A DNA stretch of 64,000 nt from Bacilli bacterium (lineage in GTDB: Bacteria > Bacillota_I > Bacilli_A > RF39 > UBA660). Below the pieces are notes generated by a model that did not search any database, was not told the origin of the DNA, and saw nothing but the letters and a program-made list of their open reading frames with translations. Positions 8,421-64,000 of the stretch are shown here, in pieces; position 1 is the stretch's first letter, and every line of letters begins with the position of its first letter. The stretch is taken from the NCBI GenBank assembly GCA_035392025.1, contig DAOPMC010000001.1, positions 68 through 64,067 on the forward strand. Reading direction: 5' to 3'. The translations under genes were made by a program, and so were the position numbers.

Positions 8421-9599
8421 ATGAGAATTGGTTTGTTTTCTGAAGTATATTATCCATCAATTGGCGGTGTTGCAACTGCGATTACGACTTTAAAAAGAGG
8501 TTTAGAAGAGTTAGGACACGAAGTATACATCATAACAACTTCATACAATGATTTTAGATATTGTATAGAAGATAATGGTCATTTGATCAGGCTTTCTGGA
8601 ATGAAAAGCAATTTGTATGATTTTAGAATTACTGGCCCTATGCATCATAAAGCCTTTACATACTTAAAAAGTTTAAATCTAGATGTTATTCATATTCAGA
8701 CAGAATTTGGCGTTGGCATGTTTGGTAAGTCCGTTGCAAAATCTCTTAAGATTCCTCTAATTCATACCTTTCACACCTTATATACAGATGATGCATACTT
8801 AAACTATGTTCTCGGTGGTAATTTTAAACCACTTACTAAAAAAGCAATAGAAAAATACATCAAACTTTTTTGTAGCAAAAGCATAAATGCAATAACTGTT
8901 CCTTCAGAAAAAACCAAAGAAATTCTGGAAAACAAATATAAAATTAAAAGAAATATTTATGTCATATCAAACGGCATAGATTTAGAAAAATTTAATAAAT
9001 CTAACTTTTTAGAATCAGATATTAATAGTTTAAAGAAAATTTACGGCATTAGTAAAAATGATTTTATTCTTCTTTTTGCAGGTAGAGTTGCAGATGAAAA
9101 GAATATTGACTTTCTTATTAAGAATCATACTTCGATAATAAAAAAGAATAAACATGTAAAACTTTTAATTGCAGGCGGTGGTCCTGCACTTGATAAGTTA
9201 AAAGATTTAGTTAAAACCTTAAAATTAGAAAAAAATGTTATTTTTACAGATCGTATTGATCCTAAAAATATGAATAGATATTATCAATTAGGGAATGTCT
9301 TTGTCACTGCATCAACCAGTGAAACACAAGGATTGACAACAGTCGAGGCATTAGCTTCATCACTACCTGCTTTTTGTATTAATGACGATAGTTTTAAGAC
9401 AACAGTTATCCCTAACTACAATGGAGATTTGTTTATTGATAATATGGATTATATAGAAAAAATCATTAATATTGTAAATAACAAAAAATTGTTGCGACAA
9501 ATGGTGCTAAATTCAAGGATGAGCGTTGATAACTATAGTGCTAAAGGTTTTGCTAGCAATATGATAAAAGTATATGAATCATGCAAGAAAAAAAGATAG
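8421..9599 (+). CDS. GT4-family glycosyltransferase (diacylglycerol glucosyltransferase-like)
   Basis: YYPSIGGV N-terminal motif and the C-terminal E..G...EA GT-B motif; 392 aa; sits on the opposite strand between pgk and gap. Confidence 0.7.
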   Translation: MRIGLFSEVYYPSIGGVATAITTLKRGLEELGHEVYIITTSYNDFRYCIEDNGHLIRLSGMKSNLYDFRITGPMHHKAFTYLKSLNLDVIHIQTEFGVGMFGKSVAKSLKIPLIHTFHTLYTDDAYLNYVLGGNFKPLTKKAIEKYIKLFCSKSINAITVPSEKTKEILENKYKIKRNIYVISNGIDLEKFNKSNFLESDINSLKKIYGISKNDFILLFAGRVADEKNIDFLIKNHTSIIKKNKHVKLLIAGGGPALDKLKDLVKTLKLEKNVIFTDRIDPKNMNRYYQLGNVFVTASTSETQGLTTVEALASSLPAFCINDDSFKTTVIPNYNGDLFIDNMDYIEKIINIVNNKKLLRQMVLNSRMSVDNYSAKGFASNMIKVYESCKKKR

Positions 9600-9611
9600 T
9601 TGTCTATCTTT

Positions 9612-10631
9612 TTAAATTGTGTCTATTTCTTTTAAATTGCACCAATATTTGGCTGTTCTTACCATTTGTGCACTATAACCCATTTCGTTATCATACCAAG
9701 CCACCACTTTGGCCATCTGTTTTCCATCAACATCAAGAACTGAAGTACATTTTAAATCAACAACTGCACCATACAATTCACCAATAACATCACTCGATAC
9801 TATCGGATCATTAGTGTAAGTAATTGTGTTGTTTACATTTTCTTTATATAAATTATTTATTTCTTCTACTGTTGCATTCTTTGATAATTCTAATACCAAA
9901 TCAACAACAGAACCCGTTGTTACCGGAACTCTAAGCGCAGTCCCAGATAACTTATTATCTAATTTAGGAATTACCTTACCAATTGCTTTAGCAGCCCCTG
10001 TTGAGGTTGGTACTATATTTGCAGCTGATGCTCTACCTCTTCTAGATTCTATTCCCTTTTTATGAGCAACATCTAAGTTTGCTTGATCATTGGTATACGC
10101 ATGCACCGTGGTCATATATCCTTTTACTATACCAATATTGTCATCCAGTACTTTAAGTACTGGCGCTAAACAATTTGTAGTACAACTTGCTGCCGAAATT
10201 ATTTTTTCATCACCATTTAAAATATTTTCATTAACATTATAAACGATAGTTTTAGCATCACCTTTTGCAGGTGCTGATATTATTACTTTCTTAGCACCAG
10301 CAGAAATATGTGCTCTTGCTTTTTCAACATCAGTGAATGCTCCTGTACATTCAAATACAACATCTACGCCTAATTCTCGCCATGGTAAATTTAATGGATC
10401 TTTTTCTGCAAATATTTTTATTTCCTTATTCCCTACTATCAACAAGTTTTCCTTAAAATCAATATCTTCCTTACGATATGAGCGATAATTAGTATCATAC
10501 TTTAATAAATATGCTAATTGTTCTGCATCAGTTAAATCATTAATCGCTACAACATTTATATCGTTATCTTGATCCATTAACCTAAAAACTAATCTTCCTA
10601 TTCTTCCAAAACCATTTATTGCTACTTTCAT
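9612..10631 (-). CDS. gap: Glyceraldehyde-3-phosphate dehydrogenase
   Basis: INGFGRIGR NAD-binding N-terminus and the catalytic SCTTNCLAP motif. Confidence 0.9.
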   Translation of the reverse strand: MKVAINGFGRIGRLVFRLMDQDNDINVVAINDLTDAEQLAYLLKYDTNYRSYRKEDIDFKENLLIVGNKEIKIFAEKDPLNLPWRELGVDVVFECTGAFTDVEKARAHISAGAKKVIISAPAKGDAKTIVYNVNENILNGDEKIISAASCTTNCLAPVLKVLDDNIGIVKGYMTTVHAYTNDQANLDVAHKKGIESRRGRASAANIVPTSTGAAKAIGKVIPKLDNKLSGTALRVPVTTGSVVDLVLELSKNATVEEINNLYKENVNNTITYTNDPIVSSDVIGELYGAVVDLKCTSVLDVDGKQMAKVVAWYDNEMGYSAQMVRTAKYWCNLKEIDTI

Positions 10632-24682: not shown

Positions 24683-25288
24683 TTAATGGTCCTGTGTCCC
24701 CGTTGCCTCTAACTTAGCACAATATACTTTACCAACATTATTCGTATAAACATCACTATTTATTGCAGTATCTGCTATCCAAATATATAGTTGATAGCTA
24801 TCAGTATCATTTAACCCACCATCTGCTGTTAATGTCTTATCAGATGCCAGCATATTAGCATTAGGATTAACGCTTATCGTATTAGTAGAATTATCAACAT
24901 CTACTAATTTATATCTTAATATGTCTGAACTTAGTGTATCGTCAGTACAAACTCCATCAACAAGCGCTGTGCAGCAGACAGAGGTCATTTTAAAGTTATA
25001 ATCTACTGCAATGCCAGATGTATTTTTTATAGTAAAAGAATAAGGTGTCCCAGATGATCCGTCGGTATCTGTCGTGGGTAGTGCACTTGTTAGAGATAAT
25101 ACATTACTTTCCCCAGAAAAAGTCAAAGTTAGTACACCTGATGTAACAGTATATGTCTTTGTTCCTGTAAAAGATCCTGCATAAAATGCATATGTAGTAT
25201 ATGATAATACCATTATAATTGCTACTATCCATAAGATAATACCTAATTTAGTAAACTTTAATTTACTTTCCTTTTTCTTTTTTACCAT
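24683..25288 (-). CDS. TasA/camelysin-like secreted protein, paralog P1 (SipW-cognate-type signal anchor)
   Basis: N-terminal Lys-rich segment plus TM, then YAFYAGSFTGT...VTSGVLTLTF...LTSALPTTD motif block shared with the other paralogs and resembling the TasA N-terminal domain; C-terminal Y.LYIWIAD motif shared with P4/P5. Confidence 0.55.
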   Translation of the reverse strand: MVKKKKESKLKFTKLGIILWIVAIIMVLSYTTYAFYAGSFTGTKTYTVTSGVLTLTFSGESNVLSLTSALPTTDTDGSSGTPYSFTIKNTSGIAVDYNFKMTSVCCTALVDGVCTDDTLSSDILRYKLVDVDNSTNTISVNPNANMLASDKTLTADGGLNDTDSYQLYIWIADTAINSDVYTNNVGKVYCAKLEATGTQDH

Positions 25289-56788: not shown

Positions 56789-58366
56789 TTACATCTCAGT
56801 TACAACATATGGATCAGCACTAGTTCCAGTACCTGTCACTTTAACTGTTGGTGCTAAATTTATTACAGGATATACATCCATAGAAGTGCTAGTAGATGTG
56901 CTGATAACTTCACCAATACTATTTGTCGATAACATATATGAAACACTGTTACTATATCCATAGGCAGACATGGTAAAATATGATGAAGTTTGTCTTAATA
57001 TATTAAATTTATTGATAACTCCAAGTTTTAATCCTGCGTATATTAGTTCATCACTTGATAACAATCCTATTTTTACATCATATAGATATGAATTAGAACA
57101 GGCATATGATGGAGAACCACTATTTGCCCTAGTATATGCTGAAGATGTATCATTACAGAAACTAGCTGATGATACAAATTTATCATAGTTTGATAAAGTA
57201 GAATCATACCATGATTCTAAACTCGTTTTAATCGCTGAATCCTCTGTTCCACTTCCACCATCATAAGTATACCCCAAATACGTAGATGCATTTGATAGAG
57301 CGTTATATGTACTTGCAGTTCCTGTTGCTGTTGTTTTAACTAATCTTATAGTATCATCTTCATTAACCCTAACAATTCGCCAATTTGAACCTGCAAATAA
57401 AACATAATTATTTATAATGTTTCCTCGATAAAAATATGTATCCTTACTATCTTGCCCAGTTACTTTATATACCCCGTTTTCCACAGTATATAATGATTGT
57501 GCACCATTATTATTATAATAACTCGTACATGTCGTTAAATTATAGTTTGCATTGTTTGAATCACAATATTGGCAATAATCACTGACATAATAATTACCCA
57601 TTGTGTCACACACTTTAGTTTGATAGTCTGAAACTGATGTTGGGGCATTATCATAATATGTTGAACTTGCAGCAGCTTTGGTAGTTGTAATTGCAGTTGT
57701 AATAACATTTTCTTCATCTTCTCCAATTATCAAATCTTTTAATAATAATGGTGTCTCCTGAGAAGAAGATACTATTAACTTTTTATGAAAATGTCTTCCT
57801 ACTATGCTACTTGGTGCATCTGATTTTATCCAAGTATTTAGTGAATATGTAACAGATGCTCCTACATTTAATGATACTCTTAATATTTGTCCTCCTGTAG
57901 TTAGTTCCATAGGTTCATAAGTAATTGAGTTTGTCTCATCTATTAACTGATATCTAACATTATTATTATCAAGCAGATTAGAATTACATCCACAAGTCGT
58001 AATTGCATCCGTATCGTTTTCTAAAGTTAAAGTTACGATTGCTTTTACATTGCCACTATTTGTTACTCTAAATTTATATGGTGTTTGTAATATTCCTTCC
58101 GCATCACTTTTAGGAAGTGCATTGGTAAGTGATATTGTGCCGCCTAGACCAGTTGCTGTATCATCAAAAGTAACACTAAGAGAACCAACAGTTACCGTAT
58201 TATGCCCAGTTCCTTCATCTAAATCAGTAAATATGGCAAAACTAGAACCCGCAATTAAAAATACTAACACAAAAATTGATATGAAACTTATAATTGCTTC
58301 CTTACCATATTTTTGTATTAATCTTTCTTTTTTTAATTTTAAGTATCCTAGTCTTTCTTTTTCCAT
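56789..58366 (-). CDS. TasA/camelysin-like secreted protein, paralog P3 (525 aa, extended C-terminal region)
   Basis: Basic N-terminus plus TM, then AGSSFAIFTDLDEGTGHNTVTVGSLSVTF...ISLTNALPKSD...YKFRVTNSGNVKAIVTL, which aligns with the SipW-cognate signal region and N-terminal domain of B. subtilis TasA (AFND...TFASGTLDL...NLSNLKPGD...FQFENNGSLAIK). Confidence 0.65.
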   Translation of the reverse strand: MEKERLGYLKLKKERLIQKYGKEAIISFISIFVLVFLIAGSSFAIFTDLDEGTGHNTVTVGSLSVTFDDTATGLGGTISLTNALPKSDAEGILQTPYKFRVTNSGNVKAIVTLTLENDTDAITTCGCNSNLLDNNNVRYQLIDETNSITYEPMELTTGGQILRVSLNVGASVTYSLNTWIKSDAPSSIVGRHFHKKLIVSSSQETPLLLKDLIIGEDEENVITTAITTTKAAASSTYYDNAPTSVSDYQTKVCDTMGNYYVSDYCQYCDSNNANYNLTTCTSYYNNNGAQSLYTVENGVYKVTGQDSKDTYFYRGNIINNYVLFAGSNWRIVRVNEDDTIRLVKTTATGTASTYNALSNASTYLGYTYDGGSGTEDSAIKTSLESWYDSTLSNYDKFVSSASFCNDTSSAYTRANSGSPSYACSNSYLYDVKIGLLSSDELIYAGLKLGVINKFNILRQTSSYFTMSAYGYSNSVSYMLSTNSIGEVISTSTSTSMDVYPVINLAPTVKVTGTGTSADPYVVTEM

Positions 58367-60415: not shown

Positions 60416-60940
60416 TTATGCATTAACAGTTTCTTCAGTTTCTATCTTTTCTACAACTTCTTCTTTAGGCAATTCTTCAACTACTTCTATAACTTTCTCT
60501 TTTACTACTTTTTTTTCTCTAAAGATTCTATAATTTATTACAAGCACAAGATCTGATATAAACAATAAATAAATAAGTAATTTAATAGTACCTAAGTTAT
60601 CAGATAAATAAGATGGACTATAATTAATACCATACTTGTAATATAGCATCATATTAGTATCAAATTTAGCACGATAACCAATATATACTATTGCACCAAG
60701 TACAATTACTGCTGTTATGTTATAGAAGAAATTACGATTAATTATTTTTTGGCGTCCCATAAGATTAATAATATACATAATTAGTAAAAGTACAAATGGT
60801 AACATAATAGGGATTGAATCTGTTACTGATTTATCAAGTCTTGTATAAGTCAGCAGTAATCCATAAAATATTAAACCCATAGCTACAAGTAATAAAAGTA
60901 TTCTTAAAACTACAAATAAGCCATTTATTAACTGCTTCAT
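60416..60940 (-). CDS. Hypothetical polytopic membrane protein (last gene of the SipW locus)
   Basis: 174 aa, about 4 TM segments, acidic/Lys-rich C-terminal tail; 4-nt overlap with the upstream gene. Confidence 0.4.
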   Translation of the reverse strand: MKQLINGLFVVLRILLLLVAMGLIFYGLLLTYTRLDKSVTDSIPIMLPFVLLLIMYIINLMGRQKIINRNFFYNITAVIVLGAIVYIGYRAKFDTNMMLYYKYGINYSPSYLSDNLGTIKLLIYLLFISDLVLVINYRIFREKKVVKEKVIEVVEELPKEEVVEKIETEETVNA

Positions 60941-61668
60941 TGTGTCACCTCCCCAGTTGTTGCTGTTGCTCTTACTTCTTCTAAATAATCAACAATTTCA
61001 TCAAGTATATTTGCTGATTGTTCATAATTATCTAAAAGTCTTTCATAAATAACTTTTGTTGGATTATATATGGTATTTCTAGTATCAACTGTAGTATAGC
61101 TGTAGGAACTATTTCCCATTAGCCAATTTTCTAACACTGTATTACTAGCTGTTATTTGATAAATAACCGGTTGATGCATTGCTAGCGTGCTAACCATTTT
61201 TTCATCTTCATATAAGTCAGATGATGCCGTTGTTCTTATTACTCCCATTTGATAAGCTAAACATTCTCCTCTAAATGAATTGAAATCTTTATAATAAGTG
61301 TAATTAGTAAAAGCATCTGCTGTTTCGATAGGTGTCTTGTAAAGTTCCATTTTTTTAAATTCATCAGTACATATTTTTAGTCCTAATCTAATTTTTTCAT
61401 AATATATAGCTTTATTATTAACACCAAATACAGTAAAACTAATTGTTGAAAGTCTATTATCAGCATCATCTATTTTTTTTACAATGTTTTCTCTTTTTGT
61501 TTTTCCTTCGTCATTAATATAATAATCATATTGCAGTTCTTGTGCATGATAGACATTAGCAAATATTAAATACCCTGCCATAAGCAAAGAGATAATTAAA
61601 ATTGCACCAACTAATAAATTAATTAATTCCCCAAAAGTCTTCTTCAGCATCTTCTTCCCTCTTTTCAA
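60937..61668 (-). CDS. Hypothetical membrane-anchored protein with a large extracytoplasmic domain (SipW-locus associated)
   Basis: 243 aa; basic N-terminus and a single TM, then a Tyr/Thr/Asn-rich domain; the start overlaps the sipW 3' end, so the true start may be an internal Met. Confidence 0.4.
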   Translation of the reverse strand: MKRGKKMLKKTFGELINLLVGAILIISLLMAGYLIFANVYHAQELQYDYYINDEGKTKRENIVKKIDDADNRLSTISFTVFGVNNKAIYYEKIRLGLKICTDEFKKMELYKTPIETADAFTNYTYYKDFNSFRGECLAYQMGVIRTTASSDLYEDEKMVSTLAMHQPVIYQITASNTVLENWLMGNSSYSYTTVDTRNTIYNPTKVIYERLLDNYEQSANILDEIVDYLEEVRATATTGEVTQ

Positions 61669-62341
61669 TTCTTTTTTCTTCTATTATAACTTTTTTCTCA
61701 GGTTCTTTATGTTCTACTTCTACAGGAGTGGTAATTGTTTTAACATTATCTATATTAGTAGTTTCTTGTAGATTTCTTTTTCTTTCTAGTAATTTCTTTC
61801 TCCTGGTAAATATTTTTACGAAGTCAAATATAATTATACCCATACACGGAACTACTATCGCAACTAGCCAACCAAATTTGGTCGCTAAGAATTGTTGAAT
61901 ATATCCTATCTTTGGTATTTTTAAAATAACTTTACCCATTATATTTTTAGTAAGTACTGCTGGAGAATCTTCGGTATTATTAGCATCACCTTTTGTAACA
62001 TAAGCTGTCTCTCCATCACGAAGTGTTATTTTGACAATTCTGTGAGTAACAGTAATACCTTGTGTATATGTTCCATCCGATATATATGTTACAACATCAC
62101 CTATTGCATATACATCATCTTTCGTTTTAAAAGTTATTATCATATCCCCAGCTTTAATCTTAGGGGACATGCTTTGGGTTAGGATAACATACATATTAAA
62201 AGGAACTTTATCTAATTTATCTTGTTTTTGCATTACTTTGATATATACTACATACGCTGCAAGAAGTACTATTAAGATAAGCAAAAGCGTAAGAATAGTT
62301 TTAGATATTATTCTTAAAATTAATGCTATTTTTTTCTTCAT
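61619..62341 (-). CDS. sipW: Signal peptidase I, SipW / Sec11-type (Ser-His, S26B)
   Basis: N-terminal TM, ER/archaeal-type SPase boxes: TQSMSP (catalytic Ser), GDVVTY, THRIV (catalytic His), KGDANNTEDS; C-terminal TM plus charged tail. Confidence 0.7.
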   Translation of the reverse strand: MKKKIALILRIISKTILTLLLILIVLLAAYVVYIKVMQKQDKLDKVPFNMYVILTQSMSPKIKAGDMIITFKTKDDVYAIGDVVTYISDGTYTQGITVTHRIVKITLRDGETAYVTKGDANNTEDSPAVLTKNIMGKVILKIPKIGYIQQFLATKFGWLVAIVVPCMGIIIFDFVKIFTRRKKLLERKRNLQETTNIDNVKTITTPVEVEHKEPEKKVIIEEKRIEKREEDAEEDFWGIN

Positions 62342-62353
62342 AATTTCACCCTT

Positions 62354-63127
62354 TTATTCTACATATCCTATAACATTTACAATACATTTAAAAGTTCTAG
62401 TTGTATTATCTAATTCATAATTATTGGCAACCCAAAGTCTAAGACGATATGAATTTGTTTGAGTTGTGGTAAGTTCTTTTGTATATAATTTTTTAGCATT
62501 TGAGGCATGAGTGCTATTATCTAAATTTGTATATGTTGGAATTACTCCCGTAAAACCAGATGCTGCTGCTCCATTTTCCTCTAAATAAACTTTAATATAT
62601 GCTGGATCTAATTTTAAACCACTTATTAATGCTTCTGTAAGATATATTTCATATGTTACTTTTTTAACTTTAGGATTATTATTTAAGTTAAAAGTAATTT
62701 GAAAATCAAAGTATTCGTTTGTCCCAGATAACGCTTTACCAAGTTCATCAGTCATAGGATAAGCATTTACTATATCAATAGCTGAATCAGCTTCGCTATA
62801 AGAAAATAGTACCATTCCAACATCAATATTGTTAGAGCCTCCCGTTGAACCACCATTATTAACATAATCTGTTATAGAAAAGGTGATAAATGATGCTCCT
62901 GCAATTAATGCTACTAACATAACAATTAGTAACCAAATGGGTACTATTCCTCTATTTGGTTTTATATATAACTGTTGTCCTACTACTATATTAGTATCTT
63001 CAAGTTCATTAATTTTTATGATAGACTTTTCAGTTACATCATATTTATCTGCAATAGATGCTAAAGTATCATTTTCTTTTACTATATATATAATATATCT
63101 TAAATTGTCATTCTTATCTTTTACCAT
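62354..63127 (-). CDS. LysM-domain pro-region plus TasA/camelysin-like secreted protein, paralog P4
   Basis: Residues about 12-56 form a LysM motif (DTLASIADKY.V....I...N.L....I..GQ.L.IP). A TM follows with ALIAGASFITFSITD, nearly identical to the P3 cleavage region LIAGSSFAIFTDLDE. C-terminal SYRLRLWVANNYELD motif shared with P5 and P1. Confidence 0.6.
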   Translation of the reverse strand: MVKDKNDNLRYIIYIVKENDTLASIADKYDVTEKSIIKINELEDTNIVVGQQLYIKPNRGIVPIWLLIVMLVALIAGASFITFSITDYVNNGGSTGGSNNIDVGMVLFSYSEADSAIDIVNAYPMTDELGKALSGTNEYFDFQITFNLNNNPKVKKVTYEIYLTEALISGLKLDPAYIKVYLEENGAAASGFTGVIPTYTNLDNSTHASNAKKLYTKELTTTQTNSYRLRLWVANNYELDNTTRTFKCIVNVIGYVE

Positions 63128-63194
63128 AAAATACTAGCATCCTCTCTTACACTATCTCTATTATTGATAATAACATAAATTTTAATAAAAATAA

Positions 63195-63223
63195 ATAAAA
63201 AAGACTTATTTTTCATAAGTCTA
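63195..63223 (-). terminator. Rho-independent terminator between P5 and P4
   Basis: AGACTTAT-TTTTCA-ATAAGTCT hairpin followed on the minus strand by a T-run. Confidence 0.5.
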
Positions 63224-63238
63224 ATCATATTAAATAAA

Positions 63239-63904
63239 TTATGCTGTTGCTTGAACATTTACTTTGAATGTATATGTTGCTGCTGTTGTTGTATTTGAAA
63301 TTGTATCATTTGATGTAGTATTATCATTTGTTGTTAAATCATATTCATCATCTACCCAAAATTGAATACGGAATGTTTCATTTGCTGCTGTTGTAATTTG
63401 CCTTGAAGCAAAATAGTTAGTTGCTGACATATAACTACCAAGTACTTTTGGTGCTAATGTCCATGTTCCTGATGCAGCAAGGCACGCTGCCTCTGTGTCT
63501 CCGGTTCCTGAGCAACTTCCATATCCTTCAACTGCTTTACCATTAGCATCTACTTCAACAAAGTTAATTTTAGTTTCATCTAAATCACCTGTTTGAGATA
63601 CTTCAGTAAAGTATAGTACATATGTAAAAGTAACTCCAGATGCAAGTGTTGGTACTACAGTAAATGTATAATAATTAGTGTTAGTACTGTGGCCTTTATC
63701 ATATGTCATTGGATATTGATTTGTTAAAGTTGCTACAGTTTCATCACTAAATGCTATAGATAACTGTGAAGTAGAGATAGATGATGTTCTTGTACCAGTA
63801 GCACTAAAGCTATACATTGCATAAGATACTCCAACTACTGCAATAACTAGTACTAAAACAGCTACAATAGAAAGTATTATTTGCTTTGAATTATTTTTTT
63901 CCAT
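63239..63904 (-). CDS. TasA/camelysin-like secreted protein, paralog P5 (221 aa, TasA-sized)
   Basis: Basic N-terminus, TM, YAMYSFSATGTRTSSISTSQLSIAF... block; C-terminal FRIQFWVDDEYDL motif. Size and position (first gene, own terminator) resemble a major fibre subunit like tasA. Confidence 0.6.
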   Translation of the reverse strand: MEKNNSKQIILSIVAVLVLVIAVVGVSYAMYSFSATGTRTSSISTSQLSIAFSDETVATLTNQYPMTYDKGHSTNTNYYTFTVVPTLASGVTFTYVLYFTEVSQTGDLDETKINFVEVDANGKAVEGYGSCSGTGDTEAACLAASGTWTLAPKVLGSYMSATNYFASRQITTAANETFRIQFWVDDEYDLTTNDNTTSNDTISNTTTAATYTFKVNVQATA

Positions 63905-63951
63905 TTGTTCCTCCTTTATATATTTTTAATAGCTAATTAAATTAAGCTGGG

Positions 63952-64000
63952 TCATGGTTTATTGATAAAAGTGCCAAGTGGACTTGCTACTGCTTGAACA
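63952..64000 (-). CDS. 3' end of a partial ORF running off the window
   Basis: The minus strand reads ...VQAVASPLGTFINKP-stop, with stop at 63954-63952. The tail resembles the P5 C-terminus (...VNVQATA), so it could be another TasA-like paralog. Confidence 0.2.
   Translation of the reverse strand, partial: VQAVASPLGTFINKP

Follow-up and report, generated by a model that had tools for sequence, protein, structure and literature searches.

Signal peptidases of the SipW type, which belong to the endoplasmic reticulum (ER) kind of enzyme, are known in a few bacteria as neighbours of the surface proteins that they process. In Bacillus subtilis, SipW cuts TasA at a site where P2 is Trp and P2' is Phe, and aromatic residues at these two positions reportedly impede LepB, an enzyme of the P type (PMC10269814). 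A SipW-type peptidase is likewise needed for the export and polymerisation of a matrix protein encoded by sipW-bsaABCRSD of Clostridium perfringens and by sipW-tasA-bc1280(capP)-calY of Bacillus cereus, and in the former operon the terminator after the major subunit permits read-through (PMC7395162). Here we describe a locus with such a peptidase at one end of a stretch of 64,000 nucleotides (hereafter the window; contig DAOPMC010000001.1 of assembly GCA_035392025.1) from an uncultured member of the Bacilli in the order RF39. We use the name SUB for the family formed by its candidate substrates P4, P5 and P6, surface proteins that have no Pfam or NCBIfam model. With a probability of about 0.5, we read the locus as a dedicated system for the export, processing and display of SUB proteins, which probably also aids their assembly or anchoring. 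The genes of the locus, numbered as in the window, are the following (aa, amino acids; HMM, hidden Markov model; ORF, open reading frame; TM, transmembrane).

63952-64000, minus strand: 3' end (last 15 codons and stop) of a P6-type paralogue at operon position -3, the gene being cut by the end of the window; matched by the family HMM.
63239-63904, minus strand: P5, a SUB-family secreted beta-sandwich protein of 221 aa; operon position -2 and the highest-scoring type.
63186-63222, minus strand: hairpin (63202-63222) with U-tract, likely a partial intrinsic terminator after P5; found by folding.
62354-63127, minus strand: P4, with a LysM domain, one TM segment and a SUB domain, 257 aa; from PF01476, hydropathy and operon position -1.
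61619-62341, minus strand: signal peptidase I of the ER/archaeal type (SipW-like), 240 aa; from TIGR02228.
60937-61650, minus strand: P243, a single-pass membrane protein (the longest ORF begins at TTG 61668); from homologue alignment and gene callers.
60416-60940, minus strand: P174, a membrane protein with four TM segments; from ORF and hydropathy.

A first-pass annotation of the window, made from the sequence alone, had placed five ORFs on the minus strand here, and all of them are present at the coordinates it gave. It had let the locus begin with P5, which proved too short, since the end of P6 lies at 63952-64000. This gene is intact in near-identical contigs (L004 864-1523, 219 aa), where it is preceded by a gene with a 3D domain (YabE-like) and by tatD. 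Hydrophobic segments, counted in Kyte-Doolittle windows, number one each in P5, P4 and P243, two in the peptidase (N- and C-terminal) and four in P174; P243 and P174 are predicted to be single-pass with an extracytoplasmic domain and polytopic, respectively, as had been proposed. The hairpin behind P5, previously noted as a terminator of its own, was found again, although it is weak: it has 8 bp, is AT-rich and folds with -10.3 kcal/mol (z = -2.45; 1 in 200 shuffles equally good). A scan for consensus terminators misses it because it has fewer than 3 G-C pairs.

The peptidase is of the ER/archaeal type. Over residues 12-175 it scores 96.3 bits (cut-off 51.85) with TIGR02228, the model for archaeal-type signal peptidase I, and with TIGR02227, the bacterial P-type model, it stays at 22.5, below the cut-off of 47. 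The closest solved relatives by sequence in the PDB are human SEC11C and SEC11A, in an alignment that runs through the SMSP, HRIV and GDAN boxes. These results bear out the earlier assignment to the Ser-His enzymes and not to LepB, and the protein sequence does contain the boxes SMSP, HRIV and GDANN. Specifically, S57 (SMSP), H100 (THRIV) and D119 (KGDAN) align with SGSMEP, VHRVI and KGDNN of SEC11C. Because these residues are kept in every orthologue that covers them (Ser57 in 28/28, His100 and Asp119 in 34/34 each), the protein is of the active type and not a pseudo-peptidase. It ends in a charged C-terminal tail of about 60 aa. The NCBI equivalog for Bacillus SipW (NF046067) aligns over 2-185 of its 189 positions with 98.1 bits, below its cut-off of 190, so that by NCBI's rule the enzyme would be called SipW-like without being a SipW orthologue.

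An indication of what this enzyme acts upon comes from the N-termini of the SUB proteins. Of the 212 top-scoring members, 208 have A-x-[FYW] behind the hydrophobic segment, at a median position of 29. Within these 208, there is G at -5 in 200, S or T at -3 in 199 and F or Y at -2 in 199, and on the mature side T or S at +3 in 172 and F or Y at +4 in 191. This reads as a textbook -3/-1 signal peptidase site with aromatics at both P2 and P2'. In the window (the arrow marks the expected cut) the sites are GVSYA↓MYSF in P5 (after A29), GSSFA↓IFTD and TTYA↓FYAG in two further paralogues described below (P525 and P201), and a decayed GASFITF in P4. Compared by eye, the common pattern, G-x-S-[FY]-A↓x-[FYW], has its analogue in G-T-W-A↓A-F of TasA. 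The model for SipW-cognate signals (TIGR04088) matches none of P5, P4 and P525 at E <= 0.1, and none of 51 family members at E <= 0.01. Taking the site and the type of the enzyme together, it is likely that the peptidase cuts SUB precursors at this motif.

The SUB domain spans about 190 aa and has an invariant Trp near its end in the paralogue alignment. P4 and P5 share 25% identity over some 200 residues; together with the P5 model (see below), this alignment supports reading them as paralogous, signal-bearing beta-sandwich proteins. The two candidate substrates belong to a very large family, with many paralogues and frequent fusions to adhesin-type domains, which had gone unnoticed. Counted as clusters at 50% identity, a word-indexed search returned 72 SUB clusters, none of them named, and an exhaustive HMMER search 7131 cluster representatives at E <= 1e-3 (3981 at <= 1e-10). 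Ten of these representatives were looked up; all come from metagenomes or metagenome-assembled genomes (MAGs) and zero are named. No Pfam or NCBIfam model covers the SUB domain in the 51 family members scanned. In the long members the domain is always N-terminal and is followed by LRR_5/BspA, Big_2, DUF285, Cadherin-like or carbohydrate-binding (CBM) domains. An LPXTG motif with a hydrophobic tail was found in none of 29 long members, nor in P525. Two more SUB genes lie elsewhere in the window.

56789-58366, minus strand: P525, a long SUB paralogue of 525 aa between veg and spoVG; family HMM, 118 bits.
24683-25288, minus strand: P201, a SUB paralogue of 201 aa adjoining smpB and rnr; family HMM, 115 bits.

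P525 is also present in L013 (a related locus, see below). Its SUB domain is followed by a C-terminal region of about 320 aa that is rich in Cys, Tyr and Asn and has no Pfam match. The start of the protein is camelysin-like (GSSFAIFTD...GSLSVTF), and its C-terminus (...YPVINL...GTGTSADPYVV) resembles the RPVVxL...G.G...PY ends of the unrelated long members P0190, P0214 and P0247. P201, directly downstream of smpB and rnr and about 35 kb away from the locus, has several Cys (CCTALVDGVC). A second array of four SUB genes, with two subtypes alternating as A-B-A-B, is found in L031 (765-3822), which comes from one genome with L030 (GCA_947625575.1). It lies a long way from the peptidase locus, beside mur ligases, an integrase-family gene and a sigma factor, and a gene pair seems to have been duplicated in tandem there recently.

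P4 differs from the other members by its N-terminus. The LysM domain attributed to it earlier is real (PF01476, 51.8 bits against 20.9, residues 14-56); LysM proteins in the PDB match at E 1e-6, and among NCBIfam models the domain has its best score with SpoVID (TIGR02907, E 1.4e-9). The domain, within the stretch 62960-63127 of the minus strand that encodes residues 1-56, lies N-terminal of the sole TM segment (60-78), with K56 and R59 on the N-side, and the positive-inside rule therefore predicts that this peptidoglycan-binding domain is cytoplasmic. Among P4-type orthologues, LysM occurs only in the window lineage and in L013; elsewhere there is an unrelated, acidic N-extension of the type ADKVADEIL. 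Since the cleavage motif is degenerate (G-A-S-F-I), the P4 type is probably a membrane-anchored member of the family.

The relation to TasA is a different matter from the site. Alphafold2 predicts for P5 (from 51 homologues, with a predicted local distance difference test score, pLDDT, of 82) an N-terminal helix, low-confidence residues 27-42 and then a beta-sandwich. A Foldseek search of this model against the PDB gave nothing below E 0.09. The PF12389 model (Peptidase_M73), which gives 129 bits with B. subtilis TasA as control, matches none of P5, P4 and P525 at E <= 0.1 and none of the 10 most TasA-like members at E <= 1; of 51 members, a single one matches (E 0.0048). Neither TasA nor camelysin appeared in PDB sequence searches with P5 and P4, a profile of 51 SUB sequences against the PDB returned only noise and no TasA, and hhalign gave the SUB family a probability of 1.6% against TasA. 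With phmmer, TasA reached at best 19.4 bits among 215 SUB members, against 13.2 or less in 20 shuffled controls, in a register that recurs (signal, A-F, then ATFASGTLDLS opposite N-T-I-x-T-G-T-L-x-x-S). The mature part alone scored 12.4 bits, inside the shuffle range, and we reject the phmmer score as a sign of homology for that reason. The PF12389, TIGR04088, PDB-profile, hhalign and Foldseek results give no support for SUB as the TasA family, and the label TasA-like that the first-pass annotation gave to P4 and P5 is not supported where it means family membership. The lack of HMM or structural similarity to TasA or camelysin, which that annotation had named as grounds for giving up its proposal, was half borne out. 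That SUB works like TasA is plausible.

Directly behind the peptidase come P243 and P174. The former most likely starts at ATG 61650 (237 aa), as homologue alignment and outside gene callers agree; the ORF reported earlier is present, with this start favoured over the one at 61668 that gave it 243 aa. With this start the gene overlaps the peptidase gene by 32 nucleotides (nt), and the ATG of P174 in turn overlaps the stop of P243 (ATGA). P243 has a conserved N-x-Y-H after its TM segment and two invariant Cys, and its extracytoplasmic domain is predicted to be an all-helical bundle. P174 has invariant R34, P48, R90, D114 and Y124 and a conserved loop RAKFDTNM...YNPxYLSDN; by the positive-inside rule, R34, R90 and D114 would lie in two loops outside. 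Neither protein has a meaningful Pfam match at E <= 10, P174 is also without an NCBIfam match, and similarity in sequence or fold to SPC3/SPC22-23, SPC1 or SPC2 was tested for both and not found. It was thus correctly stated before that the locus has two membrane proteins without assignment and no recognisable TapA, as no protein of the locus gives such a match in Pfam or NCBIfam. The word-indexed search found 14 clusters for the P243 family and 51 for the P174 family, none named. The two genes appear to be translationally coupled and always directly follow the peptidase (or the short paralogue described below), and on balance we favour the view that both proteins work with the peptidase.

This arrangement was followed in relatives obtained from exact-protein look-ups, from one genome scan (18 species-level genomes) and from one metagenome scan (15 contigs); the scans used the P174 profile, and the loci (numbered with L) were annotated with HMMs built in this analysis. 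All contigs that cover the region share the order tatD-(3D)-SUB x2-5-peptidase-[extra gene]-P243-P174-ksgA-yabG-veg-spoVG. Besides the window, 41 fully covered loci keep it, among them those of 17 of the 18 species-level genomes (the contig of the 18th is incomplete), with identities of 22-24% for P243, 34-40% for P174 and 36-45% for the peptidase. The spacing from P243 to P174 is -8 to +3 nt in 30/30 loci. Between the peptidase and P243 it ranges from -32 to +16 nt and grows to about 500-600 nt where the extra gene intervenes. The SUB genes at -3, -2 and -1 from the peptidase form positional orthogroups, each in 15/16. In the L010/L011 lineage the triad of peptidase, P243 and P174 stands without an adjacent SUB gene. 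It is well supported that the block is a real, conserved unit, and the five genes are conserved together across many species, in line with the earlier proposal. In the window the minus-strand order continues beyond P174 with ksgA, yabG, veg, the 525-aa ORF and spoVG; the flanks ksgA (TIGR00755, 247 bits), yabG (TIGR02855, 285 bits) and veg, which had been named before, are confirmed by Pfam and NCBIfam, as is spoVG.

The extra gene, absent from the window and present in many species between the peptidase and P243, encodes about 150-210 aa. An hhalign comparison with the family (91.8% probability, E 7e-7) makes the short product a divergent SUB paralogue, which we call mini-SUB; it is truncated, anchored in the membrane and has an acidic cytoplasmic N-extension.

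L008 12093-12614: mini-SUB; also in L014-L020, L024, L029, L030, L033, L036, L037, L041-L044, L046 and L048.

The relatives sampled are Mycoplasma sp. CAG:611 and uncultured Tenericutes, Mycoplasma and Bacilli, from Hadza gut, rabbit and other samples. The organism is not of the Clostridia/Erysipelotrichia type suggested at first: it belongs to an uncultured lineage of low-GC gut Bacilli like 'Mycoplasma sp. CAG:611'. The GTDB family CAG-611 is part of the order RF39 (PMC8035907), and to judge by its name Mycoplasma sp. CAG:611 probably belongs to that family. We found no literature that links SipW to RF39, Tenericutes or Mollicutes-like lineages. The closest relative of the window is L013, with 61% identity in P174 and the same LysM-P4. 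The MAGs of L013 and L023 are titled 'uncultured Muribaculaceae bacterium' and carry the Bacilli-type locus, probably through mis-binning or mislabelling. In L010, an unrelated 198-aa protein, N-terminally anchored, rich in Asn and Ser and containing Cys, lies between ksgA and yabG (9283-9879).

If the locus is a dedicated export and display system, it could operate as follows. SUB precursors (P6, P5, P201, P525 and those of other arrays) would enter the membrane by their N-terminal signal, and the peptidase would cut after the near-invariant G-x-S-[FY]-A; the aromatics at P2 and P2', if they hinder P-type enzymes, would explain why a dedicated peptidase is kept beside its substrates. Although the monomer model gives no structure to the new N-terminus, x-[FY]-[TS]-[FY]...N-x-I-x-T-G, this segment is highly conserved. 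By analogy with TasA, it might serve as a donor strand through which beta-sandwich subunits are linked to form a surface array or fibre. The P6 and P5 types would be the polymerising subunits, P5 perhaps the major one because a leaky terminator follows it, and the P4 type, with its cytoplasmic N-extension and decayed motif, may stay in the membrane as a base. The long paralogues would display their adhesive modules (LRR/BspA, Big_2 or similar) without an LPXTG anchor, and the peptidase, P243 and P174 may act as one complex in the membrane, in which cleavage is coupled to assembly or anchoring. Such polymerisation of P6 and P5 by a donor-strand N-terminus on a P4-type base, by which the adhesin-bearing paralogues would likewise be built in or displayed, is a tentative proposal that we hold at less than even odds. 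A still more specific version seems unlikely to us as a whole. It would make the peptidase, P243 and P174 a multi-subunit platform that cleaves SUB proteins and feeds a donor-strand pilus on a P4-type or mini-SUB base, independent of sortase and chaperone and displaying adhesins in RF39-like gut Bacilli, and would make SUB a pilin superfamily of about 7000 clusters.

Several observations weigh against a dedicated export and display system. Every step after cleavage is inferred. P243 and P174 cannot be generally required for SUB function, because SUB paralogues are far more numerous and wider in range than these two families: 7131 SUB representatives (exhaustive search) stand against 14 and 51 clusters (word-indexed search, which is less sensitive). 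A LysM domain that is predicted to be cytoplasmic suits wall anchoring poorly. The co-conservation is confounded with vertical inheritance, because the block always sits at one site in the syntenic region from tatD to spoVG; neither the genome nor the metagenome scan gave a relocated copy. Finally, a P-type peptidase was found neither in the 64-kb window nor in the fetched loci with a SipS query, a result that is uninformative for whole genomes.

Part of the picture would also hold if SUB proteins were cleaved by the peptidase and did not polymerise, their SUB domain serving as a monomeric N-terminal stalk or wall-binding module in a variable family of secreted or surface antigens or adhesins, with P243 and P174 either partners of the peptidase or unrelated proteins of the envelope. 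The fold is a generic Ig-like or jelly-roll sandwich and the margin for TasA is small; zero sequence homology was found to any fibre protein, many SUB domains are N-terminal modules of long multidomain adhesin-like proteins, and the many fast-diverging paralogues per genome resemble variable surface proteins. However, it is not evident how a cleaved SUB protein without LPXTG, lipobox or C-terminal anchor would remain attached to the cell. That the first 20 or so mature residues, which have no structure in the monomer model, are so strictly conserved also calls for a function such as strand donation, and the three positional orthogroups with their anchored variants resemble major, minor and base subunits. 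We therefore find this explanation doubtful.

More distant from the evidence are two others. The neighbourhood of yabG, veg, spoVG, yabP, yabQ and spoVT could point to a role in sporulation, in which SUB proteins from the mother cell or forespore would, after SipW-type processing, belong to the spore surface, the coat or an appendage. TasA itself was first described as a spore-associated protein (PMC9674648), the P4 LysM resembles that of SpoVID, and its position on the cytoplasmic side would be in keeping with a protein of the mother cell. Nevertheless, tatD, ksgA, veg, spoVG, tilS and ftsH make this a general housekeeping region of Firmicutes in which adjacency is uninformative, the LysM is confined among orthologues to the window lineage and L013, and fusions to LRR/BspA and Big_2 are typical of vegetative surfaces, all of which makes a spore function improbable. 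We give equally little credence to the idea that the N-terminal segments are uncleaved signal anchors, the peptidase the general signal peptidase of the lineage, and P243 and P174 unrelated genes in frozen synteny. The constant chromosomal site, the want of a P-type enzyme in the fetched DNA and the P4-type and mini-SUB proteins, which do resemble uncleaved anchors, would agree with it. Yet in about 95% of the top members G-x-S-[FY]-A conforms to the -3/-1 rule and is accompanied by a helix breaker at -5, the motif decays precisely in the members with cytoplasmic extensions, and overlaps of -32, -8 and -4 nt that are kept across 22-45% identity indicate translational coupling.

A promoter scan stayed at background level (55 found, 54 expected), and base composition carries no signature of foreign DNA. 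A YafQ/ParE-type toxin gene with a RelB-type antitoxin gene lies on the opposite strand just beyond ftsH (L001 12300-12736, L002 12209-12645), which corresponds to about 51.3-51.8 kb inside the window.

Should the reading as a dedicated export and display system prove right, a family of 7131 clusters that has no Pfam or NCBIfam model, and many members with adhesin-type domains, would gain a unifying logic; a manner of surface display free of LPXTG would be described for reduced-genome, Mycoplasma-related gut Bacilli that are known only from metagenomes; and with P243 and P174, membrane partners would for the first time be proposed for a bacterial SipW-type peptidase. The strict site with aromatics at P2 and P2' also offers itself for testing how ER-type and P-type enzymes differ in substrate specificity. 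If only the conservative part is true, this is another lineage-specific locus of SipW plus substrates, useful for annotation and unsurprising.

Compared with the tapA-sipW-tasA operon of B. subtilis, the locus has in common a dedicated ER-type Ser-His peptidase with N- and C-terminal TM segments that is encoded beside its substrates, small residues at -1 and -3 with aromatics at P2 and P2', substrates of about 200 aa with a beta-sandwich (a predicted fold in SUB), and more than one paralogous substrate, apparently with different roles, as in TasA and TapA. The N-terminal segment of mature SUB proteins also aligns in register with the donor strand region of TasA, with a mature-part score that lies inside the shuffle range. 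It differs in having no match to PF12389, TIGR04088 or TapA and a SipW equivalog score below cut-off, in placing the substrates first (a difference in gene order that the first-pass annotation had already pointed out), in its 3-5 substrate paralogues in the operon with more elsewhere, some of them fused to adhesin domains, and in P243, P174 and the mini-paralogue of many species, which have no counterpart there. With the C. perfringens and B. cereus operons it shares the presence of lineage-specific accessory genes in the same operon (there BsaB/C and CapP), and the hairpin behind P5 parallels the C. perfringens terminator after the major subunit. The accessory proteins of those operons are, however, secreted or soluble, whereas here they are integral membrane proteins that appear translationally coupled to the peptidase; there is also no two-component regulator in this locus, and no similarity in sequence was seen.

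Archaeal bundling pili (AbpA, PDB 7ueg) and Pyrodictium cannulae (CanX, PDB 9h8b) count among the closest systems too. The eukaryotic signal peptidase complex (SEC11 with SPC3 and SPC1/SPC2) is alike in combining a SEC11-type catalytic subunit with a type-II single-pass protein that has a large extracytoplasmic domain and with a small polytopic protein, an analogy of architecture only, as P243 is predicted to be all-helical and neither P243 nor P174 matches a Pfam model. SipA/LepA of Streptococcus pyogenes (PDB 4n31, 4k8w; a weak PDB match, E 0.006) also places a signal-peptidase fold inside a surface-fibre operon. SipA is not known to retain the catalytic residues. It is a chaperone derived from a P-type enzyme and serves a sortase pilus, whereas the enzyme described here is of the ER type, keeps Ser, His and Asp and has substrates without LPXTG. 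Overall, a dedicated ER-type peptidase, the logic of its cleavage site, multiple paralogous substrates and lineage-specific accessory genes are of an already known kind; the locus departs from TasA-type loci in lacking the sequence matches to TasA, in its gene order, in its very large and often adhesin-fused substrate family and in its two integral-membrane partners without counterpart.

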